Counted from the first letter of the stretch, positions 9,041 through 30,912 are shown. The stretch is DNA of 64,000 nt from an uncultured Eubacteriales bacterium (GCA_949001935.1 CARJLX010000001.1:323231-387230), one strand, 5' to 3'. Program-made: numbers and translations. The notes: generated from the letters alone by a model not told the origin.

Positions 9041-9070
9041 TTTCTTTTCTCTAGAGAAAAGAAACAAAGG
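9041..9070 (-). repeat. Py/Pu hairpin element (family 1), reverse orientation
   Basis: A 24-nt perfect palindrome TTTCTTTTCTCTAGAGAAAAGAAA lies at 9041-9064. With its flank it is the reverse complement of the copy at 18748-18780. Confidence 0.85.
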
Positions 9071-9206
9071 AGCCTCTTAATAATTTTTTATTGCTATCGC
9101 AATATAAAAAATTAAATGCTCTTTAACTTTTGTTTAGATAAATAAAATTAAAAAAGTTTTTATCAACTGAAGGCATAATTTTATGATGACAAGGTTGATA
9201 AAATAA

Positions 9207-9243
9207 GTTTCTTATGCTTACTTTTCTTTAAAAGAAAAGTAAG
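9207..9243 (+). repeat. Py/Pu hairpin element (family 1)
   Basis: Flank GTTTCTTATG is followed by CTTACTTTTCTTT-A-AAAGAAAAGTAAG (13-bp arms, 9217-9243). It ends 25 nt before the spoIIIAF ATG. Confidence 0.85.
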
Positions 9244-9268
9244 ACATAAAAAGAAGAAAGGAGGGAAT

Positions 9269-9769
9269 ATGTTTGCATCTTTGTCGGCATGGATAATGTC
9301 TATTGCAGGGATAATATGCCTGTCAGTACTTATAGAATTAGTTCTTCCAAACGGTCAAATGAGTAAATATATCAAAGGTATATTTTCTTTTATAATCATA
9401 CTTGTTATTATTTCTCCTATTCCCAAATTACTTCATAAAGATTTTGACTTTTCCAATATGTTTGGTTCAAGCGAAATAAAAGTGCAGGAGGATTATCTTT
9501 ATCAATTAAACTTAAATAAAGTTTCAGCTATGCAAAAAAGCATAAATGAACAAATTGAAGAATGCGGTTATCAAAATGTAACTGCAAGAATTGATAGTGA
9601 TATATTTGCTTCAACAATAGAAATTAAGGCGGTTTATGTCGATATTAGTCTTTTAATCATAAGTGAAAATGCTGTGCATAAAGATATTATAGAAGCAAAG
9701 AAGGACATGCTTAAAATCGTCACAACAGTTGTTCAAATTCAAAATGAAAGGGTGGTGTTTAATGAATAA
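9269..9769 (+). CDS. spoIIIAF: stage III sporulation protein AF
   Basis: 166 aa with two N-terminal TM helices and a soluble C-domain. Sixth gene of the array. SD AAAGGAGGG lies upstream. Confidence 0.65.
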   Translation: MFASLSAWIMSIAGIICLSVLIELVLPNGQMSKYIKGIFSFIIILVIISPIPKLLHKDFDFSNMFGSSEIKVQEDYLYQLNLNKVSAMQKSINEQIEECGYQNVTARIDSDIFASTIEIKAVYVDISLLIISENAVHKDIIEAKKDMLKIVTTVVQIQNERVVFNE

Positions 9770-10304
9770 AGTTTTAGCCTCATTTAAAGGTTTTTGGGAA
9801 AGAATAAAAAAAGTTAAACATATTGAAATATATTTAACGATTATTGTTGCACTTATAATAATTGCTATCTATCTTTCATCATTGGGTTTAGGTTCAAGCA
9901 AACAAACTTCAACAAACGACAAAAATAATCAAAATTCGCCAACCACTTTTTCGACATCTGCGGAATATGTGGACTACCTTGAGAATAAACTAGACAATGT
10001 ATTATCAAGTGTGCAGGGGGCTAGCAATGTTAATGTGATAATAACTCTTGAAAGCGGTTTTGAGTATGAGTATGCAACTGAAGAAGAAACAAAACAAACT
10101 TCAAACGGAAGTGTAACAACTTCAACATTAGTTCTTGTAGACGGCAAACCAGTCGTAGTTAAAGAATATTACCCAACAATAAAAGGCATTGTAGTTGTTG
10201 CAAAAGGTGCAGAAGATGTAAAAGTAAAAATGGACATTCTAACCCTCATCCAGACGGTTATTGAAGTCGAAAACGCCAAGATAACAATTTTGGCAGGAAA
10301 TTAA
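9762..10304 (+). CDS. spoIIIAG: stage III sporulation protein AG
   Basis: A single TM helix is followed by a low-complexity linker and a C-terminal ring-building-like domain (KGIVVVAKGAED). The start is moved to ATG 9762 (MNKVLASF). Confidence 0.7.
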   Translation: MNKVLASFKGFWERIKKVKHIEIYLTIIVALIIIAIYLSSLGLGSSKQTSTNDKNNQNSPTTFSTSAEYVDYLENKLDNVLSSVQGASNVNVIITLESGFEYEYATEEETKQTSNGSVTTSTLVLVDGKPVVVKEYYPTIKGIVVVAKGAEDVKVKMDILTLIQTVIEVENAKITILAGN

Positions 10305-10316
10305 AAGGAGAGAATT

Positions 10317-10787
10317 ATGAAGAAAAGAACAAAAATTATTATTTTAACAGCAATGGTATTACTTCTTGGCGTGACAGGATATTTGAATATCGTACTCAAC
10401 AACAATATTAAACAACCAGACTCAACTCAAACTACAACAAGTTATTTCACTGCATACAGAACCGACAGAGAATCAACTCGTGATCAAGAAATGCTTTACT
10501 ATGATGCAATCATTGGAAATGAAACTTCAACTGAAGAGGCAAAGAAAGCTGCAGAAAGTGCTAGACTTAGCTTAGTTGCTCAAATGGAAAAAGAGCTTGT
10601 TGTGGAAGGTTTAATTAAGGCTAAAGGTTTTGAGGATGCAATTGTAACTATTTCTGGAGCTAATGTTAATGCAATCGTAAAATCTAGTGAACTTAAATCT
10701 ACCGATGTAGCTCAAATTGTTAGTGTAATTCAAACTCAACTCAATATTGACGATATTGACAACATCAAAGTTATACCAGTAGCCTAG
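10317..10787 (+). CDS. spoIIIAH: stage III sporulation protein AH
   Basis: 156 aa with an N-terminal TM helix. Last gene of the array, with the size and layout of SpoIIIAH. SD AAGGAGAG lies upstream. Confidence 0.65.
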   Translation: MKKRTKIIILTAMVLLLGVTGYLNIVLNNNIKQPDSTQTTTSYFTAYRTDRESTRDQEMLYYDAIIGNETSTEEAKKAAESARLSLVAQMEKELVVEGLIKAKGFEDAIVTISGANVNAIVKSSELKSTDVAQIVSVIQTQLNIDDIDNIKVIPVA

Positions 10788-10842
10788 CTGGTGAGGGGAA
10801 CCATATGTTCCACGATTATTTTAACAACTCTAATTTTAAAAT

Positions 10843-10878
10843 AAAGCAGAAGAGATACTATATTTCTTTTGCTTTTTT
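10843..10878 (+). terminator. terminator of the spoIIIA operon
   Basis: AAAGCAGAAG (10843-10852) pairs with CTTTTGCTTT (10866-10875), including one G-U pair. A T run follows. Confidence 0.6.
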
Positions 10879-10914
10879 ATAAGTTAGAAATATTAAAATT
10901 TTCTTTATATTTAA

Positions 10915-10944
10915 TTGCAAAATTATGTTATCTTATGATATAAT
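10915..10944 (+). promoter_or_regulatory. sigmaA-type promoter for asp23-nusB-xseA
   Basis: TTGCAA (10915-10920), an 18-nt spacer, then TG-A-TATAAT (-10 at 10939-10944). Confidence 0.5.
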
Positions 10945-10972
10945 CTAAATAAAGTAAGAATTAGGAGTAATT

Positions 10973-11344
10973 ATGGCAAAAAATAATACACTAACAAACA
11001 AAGGAAAGGTGGATATTGATAGAGATATTTTACTTTCTATTATTAATCTTGCAACCAAAGAAATTAGTGGTGTGGAAAGTTTAACAAATGCATATATGTC
11101 TTGGTTTAAACGCACTTTTACTAAGCCCAAAAGCGAAGGTGTTAATATAAAGTTTGAAGGCAATAATGTTTTAAAAATAGATGTTTATATTCGAGTATAT
11201 GCAGGTGTAAGTGTACCGGACATTGCTTTCCGTGTTCAAGAAAATATTAAAAACAGTCTTGGTTCTATGGTTGGAATAAAACCAGGGAAAATCAATGTAC
11301 ATGTATATGGCGTGAACTGTGATAAAGTGGTAGGTGAAGAATAA
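10973..11344 (+). CDS. Asp23/Gls24 family envelope stress protein
   Basis: 123 aa. GKVDIDRDILLSIINLATKEISGV is the typical Asp23 N-terminus. It precedes nusB, as yqhY does in Bacillus. Confidence 0.8.
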   Translation: MAKNNTLTNKGKVDIDRDILLSIINLATKEISGVESLTNAYMSWFKRTFTKPKSEGVNIKFEGNNVLKIDVYIRVYAGVSVPDIAFRVQENIKNSLGSMVGIKPGKINVHVYGVNCDKVVGEE

Positions 11345-11736
11345 TGAGAAGAGATGCCAGACTTAAGGCCTTTACTCTTGTTTTTGAAAAACTTTTTTCT
11401 CAATGTGACGAATTTGATAGCGAAATGATTGATGAACTTAAGAAAGCTGAAGACAGAGAGTTTGCAAGAGCTATTGTTGAAAAATTTGAAGAAAATAGAA
11501 AAACTCTTCAAATGCTTGTTGAAAATAATTTGAAAGACTACGAAATAGATAGGGTTTACAAAGTTGACCTCGCCATTATCTATACCGCTTTAAGTGAAAT
11601 TGTATATTTAAAGACGCCAACAAAGGTGGCAATCAATGAGGCTCTTGAAATTGCTAAAGTATATTCAACAGAAAAGAGTTCAAAATTTATTCATGGCGTG
11701 TTGTCAGCAATAATAAAAAGTGAAGGACTATGCTAA
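11344..11736 (+). CDS. nusB: transcription antitermination factor NusB
   Basis: 130 aa. MRRDARLKAFTLVFE and the C-terminal FIHGVL block are NusB-like. Its ATG overlaps the asp23 stop codon. Confidence 0.88.
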   Translation: MRRDARLKAFTLVFEKLFSQCDEFDSEMIDELKKAEDREFARAIVEKFEENRKTLQMLVENNLKDYEIDRVYKVDLAIIYTALSEIVYLKTPTKVAINEALEIAKVYSTEKSSKFIHGVLSAIIKSEGLC

Positions 11737-12902
11737 AAACAATAACTGTAAGTCAGTTAAATGGTTATATAAAAGGAATATTTGAAGCTGAGGTACTTCT
11801 CCAAAACATTGATGTGATTGGAGAAGTTTTTGGTATTTCTATATCACGCAATATAATGTATTTTTCTTTACGCGACAATGAAGCTAGCATTCCATGCGTT
11901 TGTTTTTATCCTGCCTTATTTGATAGTATAAAAGAAGGCGAAGAAATGATTGTGACAGGCTCTCCCAATTTTTATTGTAAAGGTGGGAAATTAAGTTTTG
12001 TTGTCACTAAAGTAGAAAAGAATGGACAAGGCAAACTTTATGAAGAGTTTTTAAAACTTAAAGATAAACTTGAAAAAGAAGGTTTATTCAGCGAAAGCCA
12101 CAAAAAACCAATCCCGCAAAACATAAGACGCATAGGCGTGATAACTTCAAGTGAAGGTGCTGTAATACAAGACATAAAGCAAGTTAGTTGGAGAAGAAAT
12201 CCAGGAGTAGACATAGTGCTTTATTCAACACGCGTACAAGGCAAAGGTGCTGAAAATGAGATAGCACACGCTATTGAAGTTATGGGTGAATATGATAAAA
12301 TTGATGTTATCATAGTCGCTCGTGGTGGCGGTTCACTTGAAGATTTGTGGGCTTACAACACCGAAATAGTTGCTAGAGCCACTTATAATTGTCCAAAACC
12401 TATTGTGTCAGCAGTAGGTCATGAAACAGATTTCACAATAATAGATTTTGTAAGTGACCTTAGAGCCTCAACGCCGTCAGTTGCGGCCGAAGTTCTAAAT
12501 GCAAATCTAGAAGAGAAAAAAGAGAACTTAATAACACTTTCTTATAAATTTAAAAATTTATGTTTTGATTTTGTAGAAGATAAAACTCAGAACATTACAG
12601 TTTTACAAAATTACTTGATTAATGCACTTGAAAAGACTATAATAAACTCAAACTCAACTTTAGACAAATTGGCTATGCGTTTTGAAAGGGTGGCAAGTAG
12701 ATTTTTGGAAGAACGCTCTTACAATTTAGGGCTATTAGAAAACTCACTTGCAAAGCTCAATCCAACCGCACTTTTAAAACAAGGCTATGCCAAAGTTGAA
12801 CAATGTGGCAAGCCGATCACCTCAAAAGCGAGTTTAGATTATAATGCCGACTTAGACATTTACTTTGGTGATGGTAAGGTAAGTGCAAAACCAGTAAAAT
12901 AA
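11730..12902 (+). CDS. xseA: exodeoxyribonuclease VII large subunit
   Basis: 390 aa with an N-terminal OB fold (ITVSQLNGYIKGIFE) and the RGGGSLEDLWAYN motif. Confidence 0.9.
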   Translation: MLKTITVSQLNGYIKGIFEAEVLLQNIDVIGEVFGISISRNIMYFSLRDNEASIPCVCFYPALFDSIKEGEEMIVTGSPNFYCKGGKLSFVVTKVEKNGQGKLYEEFLKLKDKLEKEGLFSESHKKPIPQNIRRIGVITSSEGAVIQDIKQVSWRRNPGVDIVLYSTRVQGKGAENEIAHAIEVMGEYDKIDVIIVARGGGSLEDLWAYNTEIVARATYNCPKPIVSAVGHETDFTIIDFVSDLRASTPSVAAEVLNANLEEKKENLITLSYKFKNLCFDFVEDKTQNITVLQNYLINALEKTIINSNSTLDKLAMRFERVASRFLEERSYNLGLLENSLAKLNPTALLKQGYAKVEQCGKPITSKASLDYNADLDIYFGDGKVSAKPVK

Positions 12903-12916
12903 CATGAGGAGAAATT

Positions 12917-13705
12917 ATGAAAGCACCAATAACAGAATTTTTTAATGATGAAGGCTTAATAAATAAAGATTCTTATCGCAAAATGGTTGCGAAAGATTTT
13001 ATTTACCAAGATTTAATCAAAAAATATAATATCGACACCTGCTTAATGATTTTTATCAAAGATAGAGATTTACCAGAAGATATTTTAGAAAAGTGTAAAC
13101 CTTTTTACACTTATACATCGGCAAGCAATGAAAATTGGGCATATATATATGATAACAAATTTATATTGGCTCAATCTCCACTTGGTGGTCCTGCAGCAGC
13201 TGGATTTATGGAGGAACTTGGCTTTCAAGGGATTACAAACTTCTTTGCTTGTGGAAGTGCTGGACAAGTTGACCACAATTTTGATAGTTCAAAATTTGTT
13301 TTAATTGAAAAGTCAATAAGAGATGATGGTATGTCTTATCATTACTTAAAGGCATCAAAATATGTTGAAACTGATAAAAGCTTAACAAACTTCGTTGCAA
13401 ATTATTTAGATAAAACTAATCACAAATACGAACTTACAACAAGTTGGTGTAACGATGCATTTTTTAGAGAAACTCCAAAGGCAATAGAAAGAAGAGTTAA
13501 GCAAGGTGCAGTTAGTGTTGAAATGGAAAGTGCTGGTTGGAGTGCAGTTGCCAAATTTAGAGGATACAAATTTGCTCAATTATTATATTTTAGTGACGCA
13601 GTCAAACAAGAAGGTTGGGAACATAAACCTGATAGAAAAGAATTAAAAATCCTAATTATCAGATTGATGATTGATTGCATTAAAGAATTTGTTAAGAATA
13701 AGTAA
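12917..13705 (+). CDS. nucleoside phosphorylase family protein (PNP/UDP-1 superfamily)
   Basis: 262 aa. GSAGQV and VEMESAG blocks are characteristic of the PNP_UDP_1 fold. Substrate is unknown. Confidence 0.6.
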   Translation: MKAPITEFFNDEGLINKDSYRKMVAKDFIYQDLIKKYNIDTCLMIFIKDRDLPEDILEKCKPFYTYTSASNENWAYIYDNKFILAQSPLGGPAAAGFMEELGFQGITNFFACGSAGQVDHNFDSSKFVLIEKSIRDDGMSYHYLKASKYVETDKSLTNFVANYLDKTNHKYELTTSWCNDAFFRETPKAIERRVKQGAVSVEMESAGWSAVAKFRGYKFAQLLYFSDAVKQEGWEHKPDRKELKILIIRLMIDCIKEFVKNK

Positions 13706-13746
13706 TTTATATTTTATTTCCCCGTAAGGGAAAAGAAAATGTTAAG

Positions 13747-13781
13747 TTTTCTTTTGCTTCTTTTCTTCAAAAGAAAAGAAG
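13747..13781 (+). repeat. Py/Pu hairpin element (family 1)
   Basis: TTTTCTTTTG is followed by CTTCTTTTCTT-CAA-AAGAAAAGAAG (11-bp arms, 13757-13781). It ends 20 nt before the proS ATG. The ORF track translates it as a spurious N-terminal extension. Confidence 0.9.
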
Positions 13782-13801
13782 AGAATAAACAGGAGGAAAA
13801 T

Positions 13802-15502
13802 ATGAGATTAAGCCATATGGTTAGTGAAAGAACAAAGGATGTTCCACAAGGAGCTAATGTTAAAAGTCATATATTGCTAGTTAGAGCAGGATATATAAAA
13901 CAAGTTAGTAATGGAATATATACTCTTTTGCCACCAGCCCAAAGAATAAGCCAAAAAATACAAAAAATCATTAGAGAAGAAATGGATAAAGTGGGCGGAC
14001 AAGAAGTTTTGTTCCCTGTTGTTATGCCACGCGAAATGTGGGACAAAAGCGGAAGATATAGTTCCATCGGCGAGGAAATGGTTCGCTTTAAAGATAGAGC
14101 AGGGCGTGACATGCTTTTAGGCATGACGCATGAAGAAGCAGCAGTTCATGCCTGCCAAAATATCATTAAAAGCTATGACCAACTTCCATTCATGATTTAT
14201 CAAATCCAAACAAAGTTTCGTGATGAGGCAAGACCACGTGCCGGACTTATTCGTGTGAAAGAATTTACAATGAAAGACGCGTACTCTTTCCATACCTCTT
14301 ATGAAGATTTGGAAAAATATTATAATGAAGTATTTGAAGCATACAATCGCATTTATACTCGTATTGGCATGAAAAACTTTATATCTGTAAAATCAGATAG
14401 CGGAATGATGGGCGGCTCTTATGCTCATGAATTTCACCTTTTGACAGATATCGGTGAAGATAGTATTGTTATTTGTCCTCATTGTGACGCTCGTGCAAAT
14501 ATGGAAGTTGCAAACTCTGTTTATGAAATGCCAAAGTTTGAAGACTCTCCTTTAAAAGAGGTTTTTACAGGTAAAGCAAAGACTATTGAAGAGGTTTGCG
14601 AATTTTTAAAGGTTAAACCAAATCAAACAATGAAAGCAGTTTGCTACGCTATCGTTGGTGACGATAAACGCACTGTTGTTGCTTTTGTTCGTGGCGACAA
14701 AGAAATTAATGAAGCCAAACTTAAAAAAGCTGTAGGGGCAGAAGTTGCCGTAAAAGATCTTGAAGGAAGTGACCTTGTGAAAGGCAATATTGGCCCTGTT
14801 GGACTTAAGGGCAAGAATTTGACTATAGTGTTTGATAATAGCCTTAAAAATCTTTGTGGCTTAGTTTGTGGGGCTAATAAAGATGAATATCACTTAACTG
14901 GCGTAAATATGGCAAGAGATATTAAACCAGAAAACTATGTAGACATTTCAAAGGTAAATGAAGGGGAACTTTGTCCTCATTGTGGTAAACCACTCACTAT
15001 TAAACGAGGAATTGAAATAGGAAATATCTTCCAACTTGGCACAAAATATACTAAATCTATGGGAATGACAGTTCATATGCCTGATGGAAGTTTAATCAAT
15101 CCTATAATGGGGTGTTATGGGATTGGAGTAGGTCGTTCGCTTGCATCCATTGCCGAAGAAAGTGCAGATGATAAGGGTTTAAACTGGCCTATGGCTATTG
15201 CTCCTTGGCAAATTTATCTTTGCCCACTTCGAAATGATGATGAAAATGTGGCTAAAGTAGCAGAACAACTATATAAATCACTTTCTCAAAATTTTGAGGT
15301 AATTTATGATGATCGCAAAGTATCAGCAGGTGTTAAATTAACAGATAGCGAACTTATGGGTATTCCTATTAGAGTAGTTGTAAGCCCAAGAAGTTTGTCT
15401 GAAAATCAAGCAGAAATAACTATTCGTTCAACTGGCGAAAAGATTATGATTGCGTTAACCGACCTTGAAAACAAACTTAAAGAACTTTGTAAAATAGATT
15501 AA
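13802..15502 (+). CDS. proS: proline--tRNA ligase
   Basis: Class II synthetase motifs are present (FRDEARPRAGLIRVKEF, GCYGIGVGR) along with a central editing-domain insert. The start is moved to ATG 13802, behind ACAGGAGG. Confidence 0.93.
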   Translation: MRLSHMVSERTKDVPQGANVKSHILLVRAGYIKQVSNGIYTLLPPAQRISQKIQKIIREEMDKVGGQEVLFPVVMPREMWDKSGRYSSIGEEMVRFKDRAGRDMLLGMTHEEAAVHACQNIIKSYDQLPFMIYQIQTKFRDEARPRAGLIRVKEFTMKDAYSFHTSYEDLEKYYNEVFEAYNRIYTRIGMKNFISVKSDSGMMGGSYAHEFHLLTDIGEDSIVICPHCDARANMEVANSVYEMPKFEDSPLKEVFTGKAKTIEEVCEFLKVKPNQTMKAVCYAIVGDDKRTVVAFVRGDKEINEAKLKKAVGAEVAVKDLEGSDLVKGNIGPVGLKGKNLTIVFDNSLKNLCGLVCGANKDEYHLTGVNMARDIKPENYVDISKVNEGELCPHCGKPLTIKRGIEIGNIFQLGTKYTKSMGMTVHMPDGSLINPIMGCYGIGVGRSLASIAEESADDKGLNWPMAIAPWQIYLCPLRNDDENVAKVAEQLYKSLSQNFEVIYDDRKVSAGVKLTDSELMGIPIRVVVSPRSLSENQAEITIRSTGEKIMIALTDLENKLKELCKID

Positions 15503-15511
15503 AATATCTTG

Positions 15512-15550
15512 TTGACTAGTCACTCTTTTAGACTAGTATGTTATTATAAT
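15512..15550 (+). repeat. intergenic motif family 2, short form (two GACTAGT copies)
   Basis: TTGACTAGTCACTCTTTTAGACTAGTATGTTATTATAAT. GACTAGT occurs at 15514 and 15531. TAGACTAGTATG is shared with 53787-53798. Confidence 0.55.
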
Positions 15551-15595
15551 ATAACTAAAACAGAATAGCCAAGAAAAATAAATAAAGGAAAAAAA

Positions 15596-15805
15596 ATGGA
15601 AGAAAAATTGACATATGAACAAGCAAGCAAGGAACTTGAAGAAATCGTTGCAAAACTTGAAAACGGCAATCTACCAATGGCAGAAGCAGTTAAAGCCTTT
15701 GAGCGTGGTCAAGAACTTGTTAAATTTTGTTTTGGTGAACTTGATACTGCTAAAGGAAAACTAACCATTATTAAAGAAGAACTTGGCAAATTGATAGAGG
15801 AATAA
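15596..15805 (+). CDS. xseB: exodeoxyribonuclease VII small subunit
   Basis: 69 aa. TYEQASKELEEIVAKLENGNLPMAEAVKAFERG is canonical XseB. Confidence 0.9.
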   Translation: MEEKLTYEQASKELEEIVAKLENGNLPMAEAVKAFERGQELVKFCFGELDTAKGKLTIIKEELGKLIEE

Positions 15806-16528
15806 GTGAAACAAAACAGAAAAGCATTTTACTTTAAACTAATTGCAAGTATTTTATTTGCAATTCTTGTTTTTGGTATGTATTTATATGCCAATATTGA
15901 GGGTGATATAAGAGTAGGCGAATACAAAAATATACTATGTTATGCATGTATTATCGCCTGCTTTATTTTTTCATTGTTATTTATAAAAAAAAATACAAAA
16001 AAAATATTAATAACTATCGCACTTGCTTTGAATGTTGTTGCAGATTATTTTTTAGTTTTAACTTTATCTTATAAAACTCAACTTATAGGTGTTTGTATAT
16101 TTTGTTTTATTCAATTTGCTTACGCTTTATATACCATTTATTTAACTAAAAATGTTTGGCTAAAACTTCTCAATGTAGTTATTCGTGTAGTAGTAACAGT
16201 TGTTGCATATTTTGTTATTCAACATTTTCTTCATCTTGAAACTGTGGAAATAATTTCTTTGCTTTATGCAATTAATTGTTTTATCACAGTCGTTGTTTTG
16301 CTGTTCTATATAAAAACTGAATGGCTATTATTTTTAGGCTTATTACTTTTGCTCATTTGTGATATATTTGTAGGTTTACAATATGGAGCAGTCGACATTT
16401 TAGGTATAACAGGGTGGTTTTTAAATATAATAGAGAATTATGATATTGCTTTTATATGTTATATACCTGCTGAATTTCTAATCGCTCTTTCTTCAGTATG
16501 GAGCAGAAAGCAAAAATTAAAAAATTAA
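15806..16528 (+). CDS. polytopic membrane protein, function unknown (possibly YhhN-like)
   Basis: 240 aa with about 7-8 hydrophobic helices. The GTG start lies directly after the xseB stop, with GAGGAA upstream. The family guess is weak. Confidence 0.5.
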   Translation: MKQNRKAFYFKLIASILFAILVFGMYLYANIEGDIRVGEYKNILCYACIIACFIFSLLFIKKNTKKILITIALALNVVADYFLVLTLSYKTQLIGVCIFCFIQFAYALYTIYLTKNVWLKLLNVVIRVVVTVVAYFVIQHFLHLETVEIISLLYAINCFITVVVLLFYIKTEWLLFLGLLLLLICDIFVGLQYGAVDILGITGWFLNIIENYDIAFICYIPAEFLIALSSVWSRKQKLKN

Positions 16529-16564
16529 CCTCATACATATAGTCTTCGCTTAATAAAATACTCT

Positions 16565-17278: not shown

Positions 17279-17284
17279 ATCGTC

Positions 17285-17440
17285 AGAAAGTAGAAATTTC
17301 CATTTCTCACCAGTCGCAATTGGGCGTACTTGGTAATAACTTAATATATGATGCATTCTTTTTGTCATTTTTTTTGATAAATAGATAATGCTTTATGATA
17401 TTTTGTTTGGTGGAAATTATGCTTCCACCAAATTTTTATT
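17285..17440 (+). promoter_or_regulatory. probable L20 (rplT) ribosomal-protein leader with terminator/attenuator
   Basis: A 170-nt untranslated leader ends in hairpin TGGTGGAA (17408-17415) / TTCCACCA (17423-17430) followed by AATTTTTATT. Firmicute infC operons are known to use an L20-sensing attenuator. The sequence was not matched to a covariance model. Confidence 0.5.
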
Positions 17441-18558: not shown

Positions 18559-18591
18559 CTTCTTTTCTAGAAAGAAAAGAAGCAAAAGAAA
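18559..18591 (-). repeat. Py/Pu hairpin element (family 1), reverse orientation
   Basis: CTTCTTTTCT-AGAA-AGAAAAGAAG (18559-18582) is followed by CAAAAGAAA, the reverse complement of the usual 5' flank. It lies 13 nt after the rplT stop. Confidence 0.85.
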
Positions 18592-18598
18592 TCTAATT

Positions 18599-18667
18599 TG
18601 ACGCTTGAATAAATTGACTTTAAAATAGATTTCTACTATTTACTTATTACAATTTATTCAAGCGTCA
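18599..18667 (+). terminator. long hairpin, probable terminator of the infC operon
   Basis: A perfect 18-bp stem, TGACGCTTGAATAAATTG (18599-18616) with CAATTTATTCAAGCGTCA (18650-18667), encloses a 33-nt loop. A T-rich tract follows. Confidence 0.6.
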
Positions 18668-18747
18668 TATTTTATTTTCTTTTTTTAGAAAAATAAAGTA
18701 AATTTTGCGATGCGAAAGCAAATTTTTGCTGAGTATCGTAAAAAAAT

Positions 18748-18780
18748 GCTCTTTTGTTTCTTTTCTCTAGAGAAAAGAAA
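18748..18780 (+). repeat. Py/Pu hairpin element (family 1)
   Basis: GCTCTTTTG is followed by the 24-nt perfect palindrome TTTCTTTTCTCTAGAGAAAAGAAA (18757-18780), identical to 9041-9064. It ends 18 nt before ATG 18799. Confidence 0.9.
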
Positions 18781-22469: not shown

Positions 22470-22470
22470 T

Positions 22471-22500
22471 TTTCATCTTCTTTTCTTTATAGAAAAGAAG
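22471..22500 (+). repeat. Py/Pu hairpin element (family 1)
   Basis: CTTCTTTTCT-TTAT-AGAAAAGAAG (22477-22500). It ends 24 nt before the ruvA ATG. Confidence 0.85.
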
Positions 22501-23112: not shown

Positions 23113-24134
23113 TAGAAAGCAACAAAGATAACGGCAACAATAGATTTATCACAAGCACTAAGAACTTGACTGATGCCGAAATTGAAAACTCACTTCGTCC
23201 AACTTCCTTTGACGAATATATGGGGCAAGATAAAGTTAAGGAACAACTTTCAGTTTATATTCAAGCCGCAAAGTCTAGAAAGGAAAGCCTTGACCATGTT
23301 TTACTTTATGGCCCTCCAGGACTTGGGAAAACAACTCTTTCACATATCATAGCAAATGAAATGGGCAGTCAATTTAAAGTGACTTCAGGTCCAGCAATTG
23401 AACACGCTGCCGACCTTGCAGCAATACTTACAAACCTCAATCAAAATGATGTTTTATTCATTGATGAAATTCATAGACTTAACAAAACCGTTGAGGAAAT
23501 TTTGTATCCAGCAATGGAAGACTTTGCACTTGACTTTATTGTAGGCAAAGGCCCATCTGCAAGAAATATGAGATTGAAAATTAAACCTTTCACTTTAATC
23601 GGTGCAACAACAAGGGCAGGTATGCTTACAAATCCACTTCGTGACCGCTTTGGCGTAATCTGCCGACTTGAACTTTACTCAACAGAAGAACTTAAAGTTA
23701 TCATCAAACGTTCTGCCAAAATTTTAGGAGCAAACATCCATGATGACGCTTGCACAGAAATTGCAAAACGCTCTCGTGGAACTCCTCGTATTGCAAACAG
23801 ACTTTTGAAACGCGTTCGAGATTACGCTCAAGTGCAAAGTGCAGGGGAAATCACAAAAGAGATTGCCGAAAGCACACTTGCAAAAATGGAAATTGACGAA
23901 CTCGGTCTTGACACAATCGATCGCAAAATTTTGCTTGCAATAATCGATAAGTTTGGCGGTGGGCCAGTCGGTCTTGATACACTTGCCGCAACAATAAGCG
24001 AAGATGCAACAACAATTGAAGATGTTTATGAGCCATACCTTTTGCAACTTGGTTTCATCTCACGCACACCACGCGGCCGTGTCGCAATGGAACCAGCCTA
24101 TAAGCATCTTGGAAAAGAGTATTTTGTGAAGTAA
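23109..24134 (+). CDS. ruvB: Holliday junction DNA helicase RuvB
   Basis: 341 aa. [12 protein letters not shown], Walker [10 protein letters not shown] and FIDEIHRL. It overlaps ruvA by 4 nt. Confidence 0.95.
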
Positions 24135-24138
24135 AATT

Positions 24139-24498
24139 ATGAAATCTATTGAAGAATTAGAATCAATCTTAGATAAAGTTTATCGCAAAGAAACTGCACA
24201 TCCAGATTGGCAAGAAAAATGGAATAAAAATAATCCTACTTACGGACAGTGCGTTCCAACTGCTTTACTTGTCCAATATTATTTTGGTGGAGATATATAC
24301 AAACATAATAAAGAAAATCACTATTTCAATGTTATAGATGGGCAGGTTATGGACTTAACAAAAGAGCAATTTGTTTGCAAATTAGACTACTCAAATTCTC
24401 ACCAGAAACAACCAGACTTAACAAAATCACAAACTCAAGAAAGATTTGATTTATTGAAAAATCTAGTTGAAGAATATTTAAATAAAAAGCAAAATTAA
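24139..24498 (+). CDS. conserved hypothetical protein
   Basis: 119 aa, starting 4 nt after ruvB. I recognise no motif with confidence. Confidence 0.5.
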   Translation: MKSIEELESILDKVYRKETAHPDWQEKWNKNNPTYGQCVPTALLVQYYFGGDIYKHNKENHYFNVIDGQVMDLTKEQFVCKLDYSNSHQKQPDLTKSQTQERFDLLKNLVEEYLNKKQN

Positions 24499-24530
24499 TA
24501 ATTCTTTCTCGTAGAGAAAAAATTATTCAG

Positions 24531-24567
24531 TTTTCTTTTGTTTACTTTTCTTTAAAAGAAAAGTAAG
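24531..24567 (+). repeat. Py/Pu hairpin element (family 1)
   Basis: TTTTCTTTTG is followed by TTTACTTTTCTTT-A-AAAGAAAAGTAAG, nearly identical to 9217-9243. It ends 14 nt before the queA ATG. A separate 14-bp hairpin (24497-24527) precedes it. Confidence 0.9.
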
Positions 24568-24581
24568 AAAAAAAGGATAAA

Positions 24582-25637
24582 ATGACAGATAAAAATTTAC
24601 TTTTAAAAAGTTCCTATTATTATGATTTACCTGAGGAACTCATAGCACAGACGCCTGTTGAACCAAGAGATAGTTCAAGGCTTTTGTGTTATAATAAAAA
24701 TGAAGATAAAATCGAACATAAACATTTTTATGATATTGTGGACTATTTGCAAAAGGGTGATGTGCTTGTTGTAAACAACACTCGTGTTTTGCCTGCAAGA
24801 TTGTATGGCTATAAAGACACTGGTGCAAAGATTGAAGTCTTACTTCAAAAACGCAAGGATTTAACCACTTGGGAAGTTATTGCAAGACCTCAAAAACGCT
24901 TAGATATTGGAACAAAAGTTACTTTCAGTGAAAGGCTTTCATGTGAGATTATTGAAAAGGGTGAGTATGGAGCTTGCACAATCAAGTTTGAATTTGATGG
25001 GGTTTTCGAACAGCGTTTGTCAGAAGTTGGCACAATGCCATTGCCACCATATATTCATGAAAAGCTGAAAGATAAGGAACGTTATCAAACTGTTTATTCT
25101 AAAATTGAAGGCTCATCAGCAGCACCAACAGCAGGTTTACATTTCACGCCACAACTTATAGAAAAGATTAAAGAAAAGGGTGTGGAAATAGTTGAAGTTT
25201 TGCTTCATGTTGGACTTGGCACATTTAGACCTGTCAAAGAAGATAACATTTTAAATCATGATATGCATAGCGAATACATTGAAATGACACCTGAAAATGC
25301 TGATAAACTCAATAAAGCAAAAGCAGAAGGCCGACGAATAATAGCAGTTGGTACAACCTCTGTCAGGGTGCTTGAAAGTTGTGCTGACGAAAAGGGGATA
25401 ATTACGCCACAAACGAAAGAAACAAAGATTTTTATTTATCCTGGCTATAAATTCAAGGTGGTTGACGGACTTATTACAAATTTCCATCTTCCAGAAAGCA
25501 CGCTTATCATGCTTGTATCAGCCTTTATCGGCTATGAACAAACAATGAAAGTTTATAACACTGCAGTTAAAGAAAAATATCGTTTCTTCTCATTTGGTGA
25601 TGCATGCTTTTTCTGGGGAAACACCGAAAGTTTTTAA
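24582..25637 (+). CDS. queA: tRNA preQ1(34) S-adenosylmethionine ribosyltransferase-isomerase
   Basis: 351 aa. [28 protein letters not shown] and HFTPQL are canonical QueA blocks. Confidence 0.93.
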
Positions 25638-25835
25638 AGGTTGCAAAATCAAAAACCATCTTTTCAATTGTTGCGATTTTAATTAAAAACACAACATCTT
25701 GTGACTGTTATGTGCATACAAGATACTAAATATAGTTTTTAAAAAACAAGCAATTTTTAACGCTTTGCAAAATTTACAACTAAACAATACTGAGTAATAT
25801 CATCAAATATAAATTTAAAAAGCGTTAAAATTATA

Positions 25836-25868
25836 TTTCTTTTGCTTCTTTTCTAGCAAGAAAAGAAG
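25836..25868 (+). repeat. Py/Pu hairpin element (family 1)
   Basis: TTTCTTTTG is followed by CTTCTTTTCT-AGCA-AGAAAAGAAG (25845-25868). It ends 23 nt before the tgt ATG. Confidence 0.9.
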
Positions 25869-25879
25869 AGAAAAAATAA

Positions 25880-27031
<1,152 letters not shown>

Positions 27032-27045
27032 CAGAGAGGAAACAA

Positions 27046-27615
27046 ATGAAAAAATCCATTTTAATTGATATAGACGATTGTATTTGCGACAATGTTTATT
27101 TTAAAATTCTAAAAGATGTTATAAAAAGCAATAAGAAAATTGAGGATTGCACTGAATATCATGTTGAAGACAATTTTAATTTATCCAAAGAACAAATTGA
27201 TTGTTATAATAATAGACTTGGACAAATTAATCCTTATAAACGGGCAATTATACATAAAGATTGTATTGAAGTTATACAAAAACTAAATGAAAAATATAAT
27301 GTCTATATTTGCTCTGCCGCAATATTAAAAGAAAACTTACTAAAAAGCGGAAATTATTTTAAATATAAATATGACTTTTTAAGACAAAATTTTCCCTTTT
27401 TAAATCCTTTTAATTTTATTTTTGCTTGTAATAAAACTATGCTAAAAGCAGATATCATGATTGATGATAAACCAGCAAATTTGCGGGGAAACAATGTGAA
27501 AGAAAAACTGCTTTTCACAGCTTATCATAACAAAAACCTGACTGATAAAGAACTTAGAAAACAAGGACTTAAACGAGTAAATGACTGGAAGGAAATAAAA
27601 AATATTTTGTTATAA
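27046..27615 (+). CDS. HAD-superfamily hydrolase, 5'(3')-deoxyribonucleotidase-like
   Basis: 189 aa. The N-terminal DxD motif (LIDIDDCICD) and late IMIDDKP resemble NT5C-type HAD phosphatases. Assignment is tentative. Confidence 0.45.
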   Translation: MKKSILIDIDDCICDNVYFKILKDVIKSNKKIEDCTEYHVEDNFNLSKEQIDCYNNRLGQINPYKRAIIHKDCIEVIQKLNEKYNVYICSAAILKENLLKSGNYFKYKYDFLRQNFPFLNPFNFIFACNKTMLKADIMIDDKPANLRGNNVKEKLLFTAYHNKNLTDKELRKQGLKRVNDWKEIKNILL

Positions 27616-27672
27616 ATTATTGATATTTTTTGGTATTTATGTTATACTTATTTTAGAAATGGAGATGAAATT

Positions 27673-27870
27673 ATGGAAAAAGAAGAAATGATAACTTTAG
27701 ATAAAAAAGTTTTGATTGATATTGTTGAACAGTATGATGACGCATATAATCTTTTGCCAGCAAATCTTAAATCTGATTTGGATTTTATTGATGCTAAATT
27801 GCGTGGCATGACAATCCGTACTAATGCAAGATATGAATCAGCAAAAAATACTTTATATCCAGAAAATTAA
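27673..27870 (+). CDS. hypothetical small protein
   Basis: 65 aa with SD GGAGATGAAA. It has its own TTGATA-17-TATACT promoter and its own terminator. Confidence 0.5.
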   Translation: MEKEEMITLDKKVLIDIVEQYDDAYNLLPANLKSDLDFIDAKLRGMTIRTNARYESAKNTLYPEN

Positions 27871-27896
27871 AAAGCCTCTCATTGGGAGGTTTTTTA
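27871..27896 (+). terminator. rho-independent terminator
   Basis: CCTCTC (27875-27880) pairs with GGGAGG (27884-27889), followed by T6. Confidence 0.7.
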
Positions 27897-28020
27897 ATTT
27901 TTTATCTATGAAATTATTTGACTTAAAAATTCTTTATGGTGTATAATTAGTTAGGTGAAAATTAATTTATTGCATATGTTGCTAATTTAAACAATTTTCA
28001 TACATTAAAAGGGGAAAGTT

Positions 28021-29610
28021 ATGAGCAGTTTAAGCATTCTTTGCTCTGCTGCTGTGACCGCCGGAATTGTTAGTGGGGTTATCGCACTCATCGTTGGAGT
28101 GGGATTTGGTATACTTTTATACAAACTTCTTGCCACAAAAAAAATCGGTAAATCTAAGACAAATGCTGTCAAAATTATCGAAGAGGCGTATGCAGAGGCA
28201 AAGACTATTAAAAAAGAAGCTATTTTAGAAGCTAAAGAGGAATCTCAAAAAATTAAAGATGAGGCTACCGAAGAAGCTAAAAATAGACGAAACGAAATTC
28301 AAAAGTCTGAGGAGCGTCTTGAACAACGCGAAGAATACATCACTAAAAAAGAGATGGCTCTTGACACTAAACAAGAACAAATTGACAACGAAAAAAACAA
28401 GATTGATGCTGAGCGTCAAAAAATTGCAGTCGCAATTGAAGAGCAGGCAAAAATCAAAGAAAACATGCTTACTGAACTTGAAAAAATTTCAGGCTTAAGC
28501 AAGAATGATGCTAAGAATATTTTAATTGAAAACATCACAGAAGATGCAAAAAAAGATGCTGGTATTTTAGTTAAAAAGATTGAGGATGAAGCAAGAGAAA
28601 ATGCAGAAAAGTTTGCACAAGAAATTGTTGCAGGTGCTATTCAAAAATGTGCAACAGACCTTTCTAGTGAAATGACTGTAACAACAGTGCCTCTTCCAAA
28701 TGACGAAATGAAGGGTAGAATAATTGGTCGCGAGGGACGTAATATTCGTTCTATCGAAAGCGTGACAGGCGTTGAACTTATTATTGACGATACACCTGAA
28801 GCAATCACTATTTCAAGTTTCGACCCAATTAGAAGAGAGATTGCACGTCTTTCTCTTGAAAAACTTATTGTTGATGGCAGAATTCATCCAACAAGAGTTG
28901 AAGAAGTTGTTGATAAAGCCACAATGGAAGTTGAAAAGACAATCAAACAAGCGGGTGAAAACGCATGCGAAGAGGTTGGAATTTTCAATCTTCACCCAGA
29001 ACTTGTTAAAGTTTTAGGGCGATTGAAGTATAGAACAAGTTATGGGCAAAATGTGCTTAGGCACTCTATTGAAACTGCAATCTTAGCAGGATTAATTGCC
29101 AGTGAACTTGGGGCAAACGCTACAATAGCAAAACGCGGTGGACTTCTTCATGATATTGGTAAAGCCTTAGACCATGAAATTGAAGGAACACATGTTTCAA
29201 TCGGTGTTGACCTTGCCAAAAAATACAAAGAGAATGAAGAAGTTATTCATTGTATCGAAGCTCACCATATGAATGTTCCTTTCCATAGCATTGAAGCTAT
29301 TATTGTTCAAGTAGCAGATGCGATTTCATCTTCAAGACCTGGTGCAAGACGCGAAAGCTTTGAAAACTATATTAAGCGTTTACAACAACTTGAAGAGATT
29401 TCAAACAGCTTCAAAGGCGTTGAAAAATCTTATGCTATTCAAGCAGGTCGTGAAGTTCGCATCATTGTAAAACCAGAAGAAATCAATGATAATGACGCTA
29501 TGTTCCTTGCAAAAGATATTGCAAAGCGTATTGAAAATGAAATGCAATATCCAGGGCAAATCAAAGTCAACGTTATTCGCGAATACCGTGCAAGTGACAT
29601 TGCAAAATAG
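28021..29610 (+). CDS. rny: ribonuclease Y
   Basis: 529 aa with an N-terminal TM helix, a coiled coil, a KH domain (GRIIGREGRNIRSIE) and an HD domain (LLHDIGKA). Confidence 0.95.
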   Translation: MSSLSILCSAAVTAGIVSGVIALIVGVGFGILLYKLLATKKIGKSKTNAVKIIEEAYAEAKTIKKEAILEAKEESQKIKDEATEEAKNRRNEIQKSEERLEQREEYITKKEMALDTKQEQIDNEKNKIDAERQKIAVAIEEQAKIKENMLTELEKISGLSKNDAKNILIENITEDAKKDAGILVKKIEDEARENAEKFAQEIVAGAIQKCATDLSSEMTVTTVPLPNDEMKGRIIGREGRNIRSIESVTGVELIIDDTPEAITISSFDPIRREIARLSLEKLIVDGRIHPTRVEEVVDKATMEVEKTIKQAGENACEEVGIFNLHPELVKVLGRLKYRTSYGQNVLRHSIETAILAGLIASELGANATIAKRGGLLHDIGKALDHEIEGTHVSIGVDLAKKYKENEEVIHCIEAHHMNVPFHSIEAIIVQVADAISSSRPGARRESFENYIKRLQQLEEISNSFKGVEKSYAIQAGREVRIIVKPEEINDNDAMFLAKDIAKRIENEMQYPGQIKVNVIREYRASDIAK

Positions 29611-29618
29611 GAGCAGAT

Positions 29619-30200
29619 ATGAATAATATAATTGAGACAGTTCAAAAATATAATCAAGGGGACGAACTTCTTGAAATTCTCACAGAAAATGGGGGGGGGA
29701 CAGGTGTTCCTGCTAAAAGAAAAGATATTCATAAACAAGGACTTTGGCATAGAGCAGTCATCATTGCAATTATAAATGATGAAAATAAAATCTTGATACA
29801 AAAAAGAGCCTCGACAAAAGAAAAATTTCCTGGACTTTGGGATTTATCAGTAGCAGGTCATGTCCCATTTGGACAAGATAGCACAAGTTGTGTAGTATTA
29901 GAAATTATGGAAGAAGTTGGCTATATGATTCCTAAAAAAATTGGGGTAAAAGACTTTAGATTCATGACTTCTTTTAGAAGTCATATTAATGTTAGTGATT
30001 CTTTTATAGAAAATCAATTTTATGATTTCTTTATTTGTAATTTTAATATACCTATACAGGATATTCATCTGCAAAAAGAAGAAGTTGATGAGGTTCGTTA
30101 TGCAACAATTTTTGAGATAAAAGAAATGGCAGACAAAGGGCTATTTCATCCAAGAACTGAATGGATTCAAGTTCTTTATAATTATATTGCTAAATTTTAA
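29619..30200 (+). CDS. NUDIX-fold hydrolase (degenerate Nudix box); contains an in-frame G9 tract
   Basis: 193 aa. WHRAVIIAI and GHVPFGQDSTSCVVLEIMEEVGY resemble an IDI/Nudix fold with non-consensus box residues. The G9 run at 29691-29699 encodes GGG. Confidence 0.6.
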   Translation: MNNIIETVQKYNQGDELLEILTENGGGTGVPAKRKDIHKQGLWHRAVIIAIINDENKILIQKRASTKEKFPGLWDLSVAGHVPFGQDSTSCVVLEIMEEVGYMIPKKIGVKDFRFMTSFRSHINVSDSFIENQFYDFFICNFNIPIQDIHLQKEEVDEVRYATIFEIKEMADKGLFHPRTEWIQVLYNYIAKF

Positions 30201-30211
30201 TTGGAGTTAAA

Positions 30212-30763
30212 ATGAAAAACTACTTTATAATTCATGGAAGCTTTGGTTCTTCTCAAGAGAACTGGTTCCCTTGGCTTGAAGCTGTAATTAAGCAGCGGGG
30301 GGGGGATTTGTGTATTAATTTAGATTTCCCAATAGGTGAAGGTAAACAAAACTACACAAATTGGGAAATGGTGCTAAACTCTGTTAAAAGATTTATAAAT
30401 GAAGATAGCGTATTCTTTTGTCATTCTATTGCTTGTATATTTTTAGTTAAATATTGTATAAAAAATCATATTAAAATAGGTAAAGCAATATTCGTGTCGG
30501 GATTCAATCATTATCTTGGATTAGATGAAAATTTTGATGAAGTCAATTGCACAATGTACACTACTCGTGGAAGTGAATTTATTAATCTTTGCAAAGAAAG
30601 AATTTGCTATTATGCAAAAAATGATCCATATGTAAAATTTAATAAACTCCAAGAATTTGCAGAATTGATTGAAGCAAAATCAATAGTAATCGAAACGGCA
30701 GGACATTTTAACCAATCAGCAGGTTATACACAATTTAAAGAGTTATTAGAGTATATAAAATAA
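30212..30763 (+). CDS. YdeN/RBBP9-like alpha/beta serine hydrolase; contains an in-frame G9 tract
   Basis: 183 aa. NYFIIHGSFGSSQENWFPWL and CHSIAC (nucleophile-elbow-like) fit the YdeN family. The G9 run at 30297-30305 encodes RGG. Confidence 0.55.
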   Translation: MKNYFIIHGSFGSSQENWFPWLEAVIKQRGGDLCINLDFPIGEGKQNYTNWEMVLNSVKRFINEDSVFFCHSIACIFLVKYCIKNHIKIGKAIFVSGFNHYLGLDENFDEVNCTMYTTRGSEFINLCKERICYYAKNDPYVKFNKLQEFAELIEAKSIVIETAGHFNQSAGYTQFKELLEYIK

Positions 30764-30826
30764 AAGTTAATGACATATTTTAAGCAATGGAGATTTACAA
30801 AGGAAAAATAAAATAAATGTTAAAAT

Positions 30827-30880
30827 AAAGCATTCATACTAAATTGAAAAAAAATTAGTTGAATGCTTTATTTATATTTT
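30827..30880 (+). terminator. rho-independent terminator
   Basis: AAAGCATTCATACTAA (30827-30842) pairs imperfectly with TTAGTTGAATGCTTT (30855-30869), followed by a T-rich run. Confidence 0.6.
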
Positions 30881-30912
30881 TCTTTTGCTTCTTTTCTTTT
30901 AAAGAAAAGAAG
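30877..30912 (+). repeat. Py/Pu hairpin element (family 1)
   Basis: TTTTTCTTTTG is followed by CTTCTTTTCTTT-T-AAAGAAAAGAAG (12-bp arms, 30888-30912). It ends 34 nt before ATG 30947. Confidence 0.9.

Follow-up and report, generated by a model that had tools for sequence, protein, structure and literature searches.

A dispersed A/T-rich intergenic repeat of Clostridia with the layout of an intrastrand DNA triplex

Intrastrand triplex motifs of bacteria fall into four classes (Holder et al. 2015, PMC4666352, citing Hoyne et al. 2000). They join complementary pyrimidine and purine blocks to a mirror third block, with stems of 6–15 nucleotides (nt) and loops of 1–6 nt. The element called BoxC, PIT (potential intrastrand triplex) or TMECO is a G/C-rich class II motif of 262 proteobacterial genomes. 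It is intergenic, without strand bias, often in inverted pairs and extremely conserved, and it has neither promoter or terminator activity nor a transposon linked to it; unusual variability marks its loci, in which deletions have often left a hairpin behind (PMC4666352). Since BoxC/PIT, the question has been whether intramolecular triplexes form and matter in bacterial cells. Here, we describe a short A/T-rich hairpin module that recurs in a 64,000-nt stretch of DNA from an uncultured Eubacteriales bacterium (GCA_949001935.1, CARJLX010000001.1:323231-387230; the whole stretch is called the window) and that, among known elements, comes closest to the BoxC/PIT/TMECO triplex repeats of enterobacteria. 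The initial annotation of the window had presented the copies as a hairpin family sitting upstream of start codons; it missed that the tail of the module (TTTCTTTTG in one copy) forms a mirror repeat varying in step with the arms of the hairpin, and that the family spans many Clostridial families.

Architecture of the module and coupling of its tail to its hairpin

The module is about 32–40 nt long and has the form 5′-T(a)CT(n)-G-outer stem 5′ (3–6 nt)-CT(n)CT(a)-short loop-A(a)GA(n)G-outer stem 3′. A scan of 185,579 species genomes with the pattern TTTGYTT(N)CTTTTCT-N3-5-AGAAAAGWA gave at least 115 loci (referred to by L numbers), across which the consensus is aaaGTTCTTTTG-CTT(A)-CTTTTCTT-TC-AAGAAAAG-(T)AAG. 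When folded in two dimensions with Watson–Crick pairs only, the arms form a hairpin and the tail, which is the most conserved part of the module, stays unpaired. The tail is the mirror of the pyrimidine 5′ arm and, equivalently, the parallel complement of the purine arm. The module thus has the layout of an intrastrand triplex, with T(a)CT(n) complementing A(a)GA(n) in parallel over 6–10 triads, a first loop of 2–4 nt and a second loop of 4–8 nt when the outer stem is open. The order of its blocks, Hoogsteen–pyrimidine–purine, is that of class IV, and on the complementary strand the layout is that of class II (purine motif). Around 24 distinct complementary outer-stem pairs are found across the family, and hairpin and outer stem covary.

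We counted the coupling between tail and arm by pattern matches over the fetched loci, with n′ as the tail run and n as the arm run. Equal runs were found 19 times for n′,n = 3,3, 18 times for 5,5 and three times for 6,6, plus one 6,6 case with a tail ending in A; the 142 matches for 4,4 are partly forced by the retrieval pattern, which is biased towards n = 4, while copies with n = 3, 5 or 6 are by-catch, found without a condition on the tail. Unequal runs were absent for 4,5 and 5,4 and found once each for 4,3 and 3,4, giving totals over n = 3, 4, 5 and 6 of 19, 142, 18 and 4 matched copies against 2 mismatched ones, and none of the n = 6 hairpins in the fetched loci has a T4 or T5 tail. The T run before the tail C follows the number of T-A pairs beside the loop (a = 1 to 4) in the same manner: a 5-nt middle goes with xTC in 19 tails and TTC in 2, a 6-nt middle with TTTC in 1 and xTC in 0, and an 8-nt middle with TTTC in 2 and a shorter tail in 0.

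The match also extends to the position of the cytosines. Two-run hairpins (C-T4-C-T3-C..G-A3-G-A4-G) have the mirror tail C-T3-C-T4 in three of three cases and the direct-order tail C-T4-C-T3 in none of the three, and CTC tails accompany GAG purine arms (window copy 18748, L006, L009, L088, L091, L112 and L115). Four adjacent modules at 7815–7991 of L093 have the runs (C-T3-C-T4), (2,5), (3,4) and (4,3), and each tail mirrors its own arm; the ends of units in L041 differ from one another (n = 6 and 4; n = 5 and 6), every end being self-consistent. At an orthologous site upstream of gltX, where L001 and L002 are 92% identical across site and flanks, the two modules differ by A-to-T in the tail, by G-to-T and an extra A in the arm, and by C-G to T-A in the outer stem. 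Most of the covariation signal lies in run lengths, and hence in indels, rather than in substitutions. Antisense copies retain the match, among them the copy past a stop codon at 1428–1460 of L041 and the copy past a tRNA in L025.

Other readings of the tail were considered and rejected. A direct repeat (TTCTTTT present twice, or outer stem plus arm) does not account for tails that ignore CCAG, CCTA and GTTA outer stems, nor for the mirror order in two-run hairpins. Pairing of the tail with the tail of a partner copy is contradicted by the L041 units, whose ends differ in n and each fit their own hairpin. An anti-Shine–Dalgarno (SD) role fits only some window copies, in which the tail pairs with downstream purines, and many copies have no SD sequence downstream. 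Watson–Crick folding, finally, leaves the tail unpaired. Copying by a polymerase is expected to yield direct or inverted repeats, never mirror repeats; since the mirror relation tracks variation and mirror repeats are not made by copying, we infer selection for a parallel, Hoogsteen-type recognition of the purine arm.

The reading that we favour, and consider probable, is that the module is an A/T-rich Clostridial dispersed intergenic triplex-forming repeat that is selected as single-stranded DNA, any effects on genes being secondary. In this reading, the 5′ tail would serve as a Hoogsteen third strand: it would occupy the major groove in parallel with the purine arm and form T·A-T triads along with one or two of C+·G-C. 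The pyrimidine-motif intrastrand triplex would be the selected structure, and it would form while the DNA is transiently single-stranded, during replication, transcription or a step in the spread of the element. Selection on single-stranded DNA is suggested because antisense copies keep the tail–arm match and the purine-motif triplex does not form in RNA (PMC4666352). The relevant strand is probably the pyrimidine-tail strand, because the module is T/A-rich with one or two third-strand C even at 60–69% GC; few third-strand C would suit the pyrimidine motif at neutral pH, whereas the purine motif would favour G. If so, a hairpin lying just 5′ of an SD sequence or just 3′ of a stop codon would affect neighbouring genes as a side effect; in sense copies, where a stable hairpin would be set a few nt 5′ of the SD sequence, mRNA stability or translation could plausibly be altered, probably as a secondary effect.

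Copies in the window and their turnover between relatives

The window core pattern, CTTTTCT-N1-6-AGAAAAG, has nine exact matches (9044, 9221, 13760, 18562, 18760, 22480, 24545, 25848 and 30891), all between 9 and 31 kilobases (kb), against 0.00 in dinucleotide shuffles; core plus upstream tail gives seven matches against 0.00 expected. With two mismatches permitted, the sole addition is a degenerate copy at 62791, the remaining near-matches being at chance level, so the ten copies first listed (nine strong, one degenerate) form a complete set. The minus-strand calls for the copies at 9041, 18559 and 62788 agree with the sequence, and the three nearly identical sub-types described at the outset are real on direct inspection. 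The copies are 0.2–5 kb apart, in both orientations and with genes between them, which bears out the earlier statement that this is not a CRISPR array.

Two inverted pairs stand out, and the two minus copies adjoining stop codons, which had gone unnoted, are their left ends. In the spoIIIA operon, the 236-nt spacer between spoIIIAE and spoIIIAF (9033–9268) is nearly all one such unit (9041–9243, with arms 9035–9064 and 9218–9247, 70% complementary). Its left module (9041–9072, minus strand) lies 9 nt past the spoIIIAE stop, has the hairpin TTTCTTTTCTC-TA-GAGAAAAGAAA and a minus-strand tail, CTCCTTTG, that fits the purine arm GAGAAAA at 6/7 positions. Its right module (9207–9243, plus strand) ends 25 nt upstream of the spoIIIAF ATG and has the tail GTTTCTTATG, the outer stem CTTA/TAAG and the arms CTTTTCTTT/AAAGAAAAG, with a tail–arm match at 7/8 positions. 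A weak promoter-like site within the unit (9160–9187) is at chance level in the scan. The second pair (18559–18780) has 30-nt arms (18560–18589 and 18750–18779) that are 87% complementary and 160 nt apart. Its left module (18559–18591, minus strand) lies 13 nt past the rplT stop, with the hairpin CTTCTTTTCT..AGAAAAGAAG followed by the tail complement CAAAAGAAA. The right module (18748–18780, plus strand) ends 6 nt upstream of an open reading frame (ORF) for a SpoU methylase; its tail GCTCTTTTG and purine arm GAGAAAAG match in parallel at 7/7 positions, with a three-way change (T-to-C / A-to-G / T-to-C).

The module at 13746–13781 (plus strand; tail GTTTTCTTTTG, outer stem CTT/AAG, arms CTTTTCTT/AAGAAAAG) ends 20 nt upstream of the likely proS start at 13802. 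The longest proS ORF begins at an in-frame ATG at 13739 and reads through the module, but 13802 is the SD-equipped start and most likely the true one; the repeat is thus a trap for gene calling, which would extend proS across a module. Upstream of queA, the plus-strand module at 24531–24567 (tail TTTTCTTTTG, outer stem TTTA/TAAG, arms CTTTTCTTT/AAAGAAAAG) ends 14 nt before the ATG; an imperfect pyrimidine/purine hairpin directly past the yunG stop (24499–24527, TAATTCTTTCTC-GTA-GAGAAAAAATTA) is possibly its degenerate partner. The module at 25836–25868 (plus strand; tail TTTCTTTTG, outer stem CTT/AAG) lies 23 nt upstream of the tgt ATG, and that at 30877–30912 (plus strand) is followed after 34 nt by the start codon (ATG) of a gene for a small multidrug-export protein; an A/T-rich hairpin and T run in front of this module are terminator-like by eye. 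The degenerate module (62790–62817, minus strand, tail GTCTTTTG) occupies the obg–yhbY spacer in sense to yhbY; its arms disagree (C-T3-C versus G-A4-G), which suggests a decaying copy. The copy first listed at 22471–22500, in the spacer leading from the ruvC stop to the SD sequence of ruvA, is a hairpin (22477–22500, CTTCTTTTCTTTATAGAAAAGAAG) with a tail on neither side.

Pfam matches support the genes named earlier downstream of the copies (full neighbour pairs: spoIIIAE/spoIIIAF, PNP-like/proS, rplT/SpoU methylase, ruvC/ruvA, yunG/queA, queA/tgt, Ser_hydrolase/small multidrug-export protein and obg/yhbY). The distance from hairpin end to ATG, first given as 14–34 nt, is 6–34 nt across the gene-start copies, with the SD sequence in between, as had been noted.

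Ortholog spacers were compared with L016, a relative (with L054 and L069, from the related metagenome-assembled genome (MAG) CANSRZ01), and module presence differs between related spacers. The ruvC–ruvA spacer of L016 holds a full unit of 250 base pairs (bp), running from a minus module (2039–2067) to a plus module (2251–2278), whereas the window has only the 24-nt tail-less hairpin. The latter looks like a unit that collapsed between its two palindromic hairpins; recombination or slippage between them would be expected to leave such a remnant. Conversely, the queA–tgt spacer is 78 nt without a module in L016 versus 255 nt in the window, where an insert of about 125–130 bp (25745–25875, boundaries approximate, plus strand) ends in the 25836 module. 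The inner inverted repeat of this insert, TTAACGCTTT...AAGCGTTAAAA, is also found within the L016 ruvC–ruvA unit. The insert is flanked by A-rich runs that are not readable as a target-site duplication. The yunG–queA module is kept in place in L016 with the outer stem ATTA/TAAT instead of TTTA/TAAG, and so is the imperfect hairpin beside it. The spacers hence differ between relatives by insertion, deletion or collapse, and we infer that the module is a structure-forming, indel-prone dispersed DNA repeat.

These observations also bear on a hairpin-only repeat of the REP or MITE (miniature inverted-repeat transposable element) kind, in which the tail would be conserved for reading by a transposase or host protein and the mirror relation would be a by-product of low-complexity T-rich sequence, without a triplex. 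REPs consist of a short 5′ tail and a hairpin, and the terminal inverted modules with their 87% complementary arms, the universal ends with lineage-specific interiors and the insertion polymorphism between relatives are all of this type. However, a reader of a fixed tail does not predict a tail whose length and C positions shift with each hairpin, and copying is not expected to produce the mirror relation. In addition, no transposase was found in the segments examined, and the pattern matched only 8 of 2.9 million viral contigs, on which ground a phage vehicle was also rejected. We regard the hairpin-only version as improbable, even though a REP/MITE-like repeat, in the broader sense of a dispersed intergenic element in both orientations with inverted doublets, is the best fit of the three roles initially proposed.

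Elsewhere in the window, a region upstream of infC-rpmI-rplT (17282–17380, plus strand) matches the ribosomal protein L20 leader below threshold (38 bits, E = 2e-4) and is followed by a terminator-like hairpin (17405–17433, plus strand), in keeping with the autoregulatory leader known for L20. At about 31000–32000, the GC skew passes from positive to negative exactly where gene orientation flips from plus to minus (convergent), and this looks like a replication terminus or strand-switch point; no dif site of the B. subtilis type was found at the switch when up to 3 mismatches were allowed. The strong repeat copies are all to the left of this point. A 621-aa protein encoded just beyond (31784–33649, minus strand) has an N-terminal PadR domain as its only Pfam match, the remaining ~530 residues being without one. 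A T-box leader (51265–51516, minus strand, 115.8 bits, above its gathering score) and a tRNA-Leu(AAG) gene (52972–53056, plus strand) are unrelated to the repeat.

Genomic context of the family and its possible functions

Carriers of the loci belong to Christensenellaceae, Oscillospiraceae, Acutalibacteraceae, Faecalibacterium, Gemmiger and many other Clostridial MAGs, with a GC content of 0.29–0.69 for those listed; they include complete Christensenellaceae chromosomes (OY762278.1, OY762962.1 and OY771363.1) and the culturable Faecalibacterium sp. An122. By crude ORF calls, on which all context statistics rest, 114 of 131 modules in the fetched loci are intergenic. The hairpin side abuts a gene end 62 times (median 46 nt) and a gene start 40 times (in a tight group at 7–35 nt), and the tail side faces longer stretches (medians of 102 and 245 nt). 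The spacers are co-directional with the module in sense (26) or antisense (29), convergent (26) or divergent (10). Neither the position upstream of start codons, which the initial annotation took as the defining trait, nor the orientation bias that it proposed to check for is therefore supported for the family. The neighbours are unrelated housekeeping genes (gltX, ychF, rpiB, aroC, purF and the glg operon among them), and there is no link between the module and the function of its neighbours.

Modules occur singly, as inverted doublets with tails inward around a lineage-specific spacer of 50–250 nt, and as tandem arrays. Inward-tail inverted pairs are present in L041, L016, L025, L092, L095 and L101, and in the last four of these the pair flanks a canonical bidirectional terminator. 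The start-codon association in the window is hence one face of a general rule: units with modules at their outer ends fill short spacers. Being the ends or remnants of 30–220-bp inserts in such spacers between housekeeping genes, the window copies come to lie 6–34 nt from starts and 9–13 nt from stops. In L093, two inverted arrays of three to four modules each in the same sub-type order (1643–1779, minus strand, and 7815–7991, plus strand) bracket a 6-kb segment. An array-bounded transposon was rejected there, as the interior consists of glgB, glgC and glgD and an M23 peptidase gene; the multi-module array is itself a dispersed repeat unit.

Several lineages have a further sequence attached to the module. 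In one sub-family (L007, L013, L020, L029, L046, L058, L065, L068, L074, L082, L084, L094, L096 and L098), the module is followed by GCGGG and a second, G+C-rich hairpin (such as TTGAGGGC-AGA-GCCCTCAA or GCGGGGGC-GGA-GCCCCCGC) whose stem varies yet stays paired; the pre-tail base is g with a TCA loop and a with a TTA loop, so that it might pair with the middle base of the loop, a rule that fails for other loop types. In L006, L023, L079, L080, L088, L091, L102 and L112 (Oscillibacter MAG), the module lies within a longer repeat, whose left flank is conserved over about 100 nt (hairpin gtgggNccttcc..ggaaggNcccac followed by ..gtgtagagcggtattaaa), as is the right flank (CCGCCGGAGGCC). A few matches from other phyla differ in their left flank and could be something else, perhaps a conserved hairpin without relation to the module. 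L014, L026, L028 and L049, from Patescibacteria/Levyibacteriota and mislabelled MAGs, read ..caag(a/g)ag(c/a)TTTTG(C/T)TTCTTTTCTCGGnAGAAAAGAAg.., with a tail lacking the TC/TTC prefix, and this sequence had no Rfam match.

The context also bears on the main idea of the initial annotation, an RNA element of 5′ untranslated regions or operon spacers, in which the hairpin, with or without a docked U-rich tail (U·A-U), would shield the cistron from 5′-to-3′ decay by RNase J, mark an RNase Y site or tune translation. In its favour, the eight window copies at gene starts are all in sense, 6–34 nt before the ATG with the SD sequence between; the RNA hairpins are stable (−8 to −17 kcal/mol for the window copies in the minimum-energy fold), and in some copies this fold pairs the tail with the downstream purine/SD stretch. 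RNase Y itself is encoded within the repeat-rich stretch (28021–29610, plus strand, with RNase_Y_N, KH and HD domains), many copies elsewhere run straight into a purine-rich SD sequence (for example L041, L073, L083 and L107), and a pyrimidine-motif triplex is described as possible in RNA (PMC4666352). The family as a whole, however, has no sense bias (26 versus 29) and lies more often on the stop-codon side than on the start side (62 versus 40). Moreover, the tail–arm match is kept in antisense and post-tRNA copies, where selection at the mRNA level cannot maintain it, some copies (as in L012) lie between a canonical terminator and the promoter-like site that comes next, and the neighbouring genes share no function. 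We therefore consider an RNA element unlikely as the general explanation. Sense copies may still act as a 5′ stabiliser or RNase site, but such a role would not account for the tail–arm match in antisense copies.

An unusual transcription terminator or attenuator would agree with a stable hairpin in intergenic DNA and with the composite units that flank a canonical bidirectional terminator. Yet, a T tract follows the hairpin on neither strand, which upholds the original objection to an ordinary terminator for every copy in the window; the terminator scan missed the modules, modules lie within operons directly upstream of an SD sequence, and BoxC/PIT elements are described as lacking terminator activity (PMC4666352). 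This possibility is very remote. More generally, promoter and terminator scans gave chance-level results, with no consistent site in or beside the modules. The gathering-threshold Rfam scan of the window found only the T-box mentioned above and no module match, and an E-value scan of 8900–31100 gave one chance match on one module (E = 4.4).

A double-stranded operator for a dimeric or tetrameric transcription factor, such as a SinR-like GTTCTYT box or a CodY-like palindrome, would account for the palindromic core, and the tail GTTCTTT would fit the SinR consensus. The half-site spacing nevertheless varies (middle of 4–10 nt), as do the arm lengths, the covariation of the outer stem keeps pairing and not sequence, and copies are found at gene ends, past tRNAs, in tandem arrays and beside unrelated housekeeping genes in very different families. 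We give this reading hardly any credence. The specific candidates considered (CodY box, SinR box, sigma-54 −12 element and the CspB-preferred heptamer TTCTTTT) explain neither the variable spacing nor the gene-end copies.

Several points weigh against the triplex-forming DNA repeat that we prefer. Some copies depart from the coupling: a JAISTA01 sub-family has the tail GCGATTTTG; L019, L031/L090, L033 and L047 are misfits; and the window copies 9041 and 9207 each have one tail–arm mismatch. The coupling counts include shared ancestry, some sub-types being single lineages and the L093 arrays being copies of one another, and the context statistics come from crude ORF calls. With the outer stem formed, only 1–2 nt would link it to the third strand, so outer stem and triplex may be alternative states. 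The TMECO/BoxC triplex forms in vitro, and in vivo footprinting did not detect it (PMC4666352). An RNA role would predict the sense orientation that all eight window copies at gene starts have, although this orientation is confounded with the direction of replication. Finally, no mobilising enzyme was found: the L093 proteins examined include no transposase, and RAYT was not sought genome-wide. We are more hesitant about a bolder proposal, which we consider possible but doubtful, that tail and hairpin are a true triple helix under purifying selection copy by copy, with a specific job in many Clostridial genomes. Its support would be the natural three-way covariation of third strand, pyrimidine arm and purine arm, a type of evidence that usually serves to establish RNA helices. 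The job could be that of a recognition structure for a single-strand DNA transposase or a host factor or, in sense copies, that of an exonuclease-resistant U·A-U triple helix capping the 5′ end of the downstream message. The differing (a,n) of array neighbours would then keep each tail with its own hairpin.

Comparison with known elements

If the triplex-forming repeat is correctly read, its interest lies in a third strand that changes with its duplex across many lineages and neighbouring modules, which would argue that triplex-forming ability itself is under selection. Its natural variants (n of 3–6, a of 1–4) could be used as they stand as compensatory mutants in biophysical and genetic work. 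Gut Clostridia, including Faecalibacterium, Christensenellaceae and Oscillospiraceae, carry the family in abundance, and it is a source of insertions and deletions in spacers between housekeeping genes. No paper describing an A/T-rich Clostridial triplex-repeat family was found: a search with the exact sequence string gave none, and searches for Clostridial triplex or REP-like families gave only proteobacterial work. With no Rfam family matched either, the earlier remark that no named element has this sequence still stands.

The module differs from intrinsic terminators, which consist of a G+C-rich hairpin and a U tract. RNA triple helices (the ENE of PAN and MALAT1; the pseudoknots of telomerase RNA, SAM-II and preQ1-II) likewise place a U-rich strand in the major groove of U-A pairs, and some protect RNA ends; the ENE, however, uses an internal loop rich in U to clamp an A-rich 3′ tract, whereas the 5′ pyrimidine tail of the module would fold onto its own hairpin. 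The composite units resemble MITEs (Correia/NEMIS of Neisseria, RUP, BOX and ERIC) in having 100–250 bp with terminal inverted repeats, in lying between genes and being co-transcribed with them, and in differing in presence between relatives. They differ in that no clear target-site duplication or autonomous element was seen, their interiors are not conserved across lineages, and their ends are hairpin-plus-tail modules that are also found alone and in tandem.

The REP/BIME/REPIN elements of enterobacteria and pseudomonads share with the module a conserved 5′ tail and an imperfect palindrome of 20–40 nt, many intergenic copies (dozens to thousands for REPs), inverted doublets, clusters, and locations within operons or just past stop codons; REP/BIME elements are known to affect mRNA stability as a side effect. 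Unlike the tail of the module, that of REPs (GTAG type) is not a mirror of the stem. Each REP family is confined to a species or genus, whereas the module spans families, and REP/REPIN usually come with a Y1 (HUH) RAYT gene flanked by REPs, of which none was present among the L093 proteins, no genome-wide RAYT search having been made.

The likeness to BoxC/TMECO (PMC4666352) is the closest. Both have three consecutive homopyrimidine/homopurine blocks, forming a hairpin and a mirror block with short loops, and the complementary strand of the module has the same Y-R-R block order (class II) as TMECO. Both are multi-copy, highly conserved and intergenic, without strand bias, in inverted pairs and beside neighbours without a shared function, and both are spread over many genomes (hundreds for BoxC) without a transposon and with small deletions that leave a hairpin, as at 22477–22500. 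The run lengths of the module vary (n of 3–6, a of 1–4) and give a natural three-way covariation, an analysis for which no TMECO counterpart was found in the parts of PMC4666352 consulted. In sequence, they are distinct families: the TMECO consensus CCCTCNCCC-N3-6-GGGNGAGGG-N3-GGGNGAGGG does not describe the A/T-rich module. TMECO is G/C-rich and adopts a purine-motif G·G-C triplex, whereas the module would form T·A-T triads of the pyrimidine motif, its third strand including one or two C+. Their hosts differ as well, being Clostridia for the module and Proteobacteria and Cyanobacteria for BoxC/TMECO, and the module alone has an additional, covarying outer stem and a second loop complementary to its 3′ flank.

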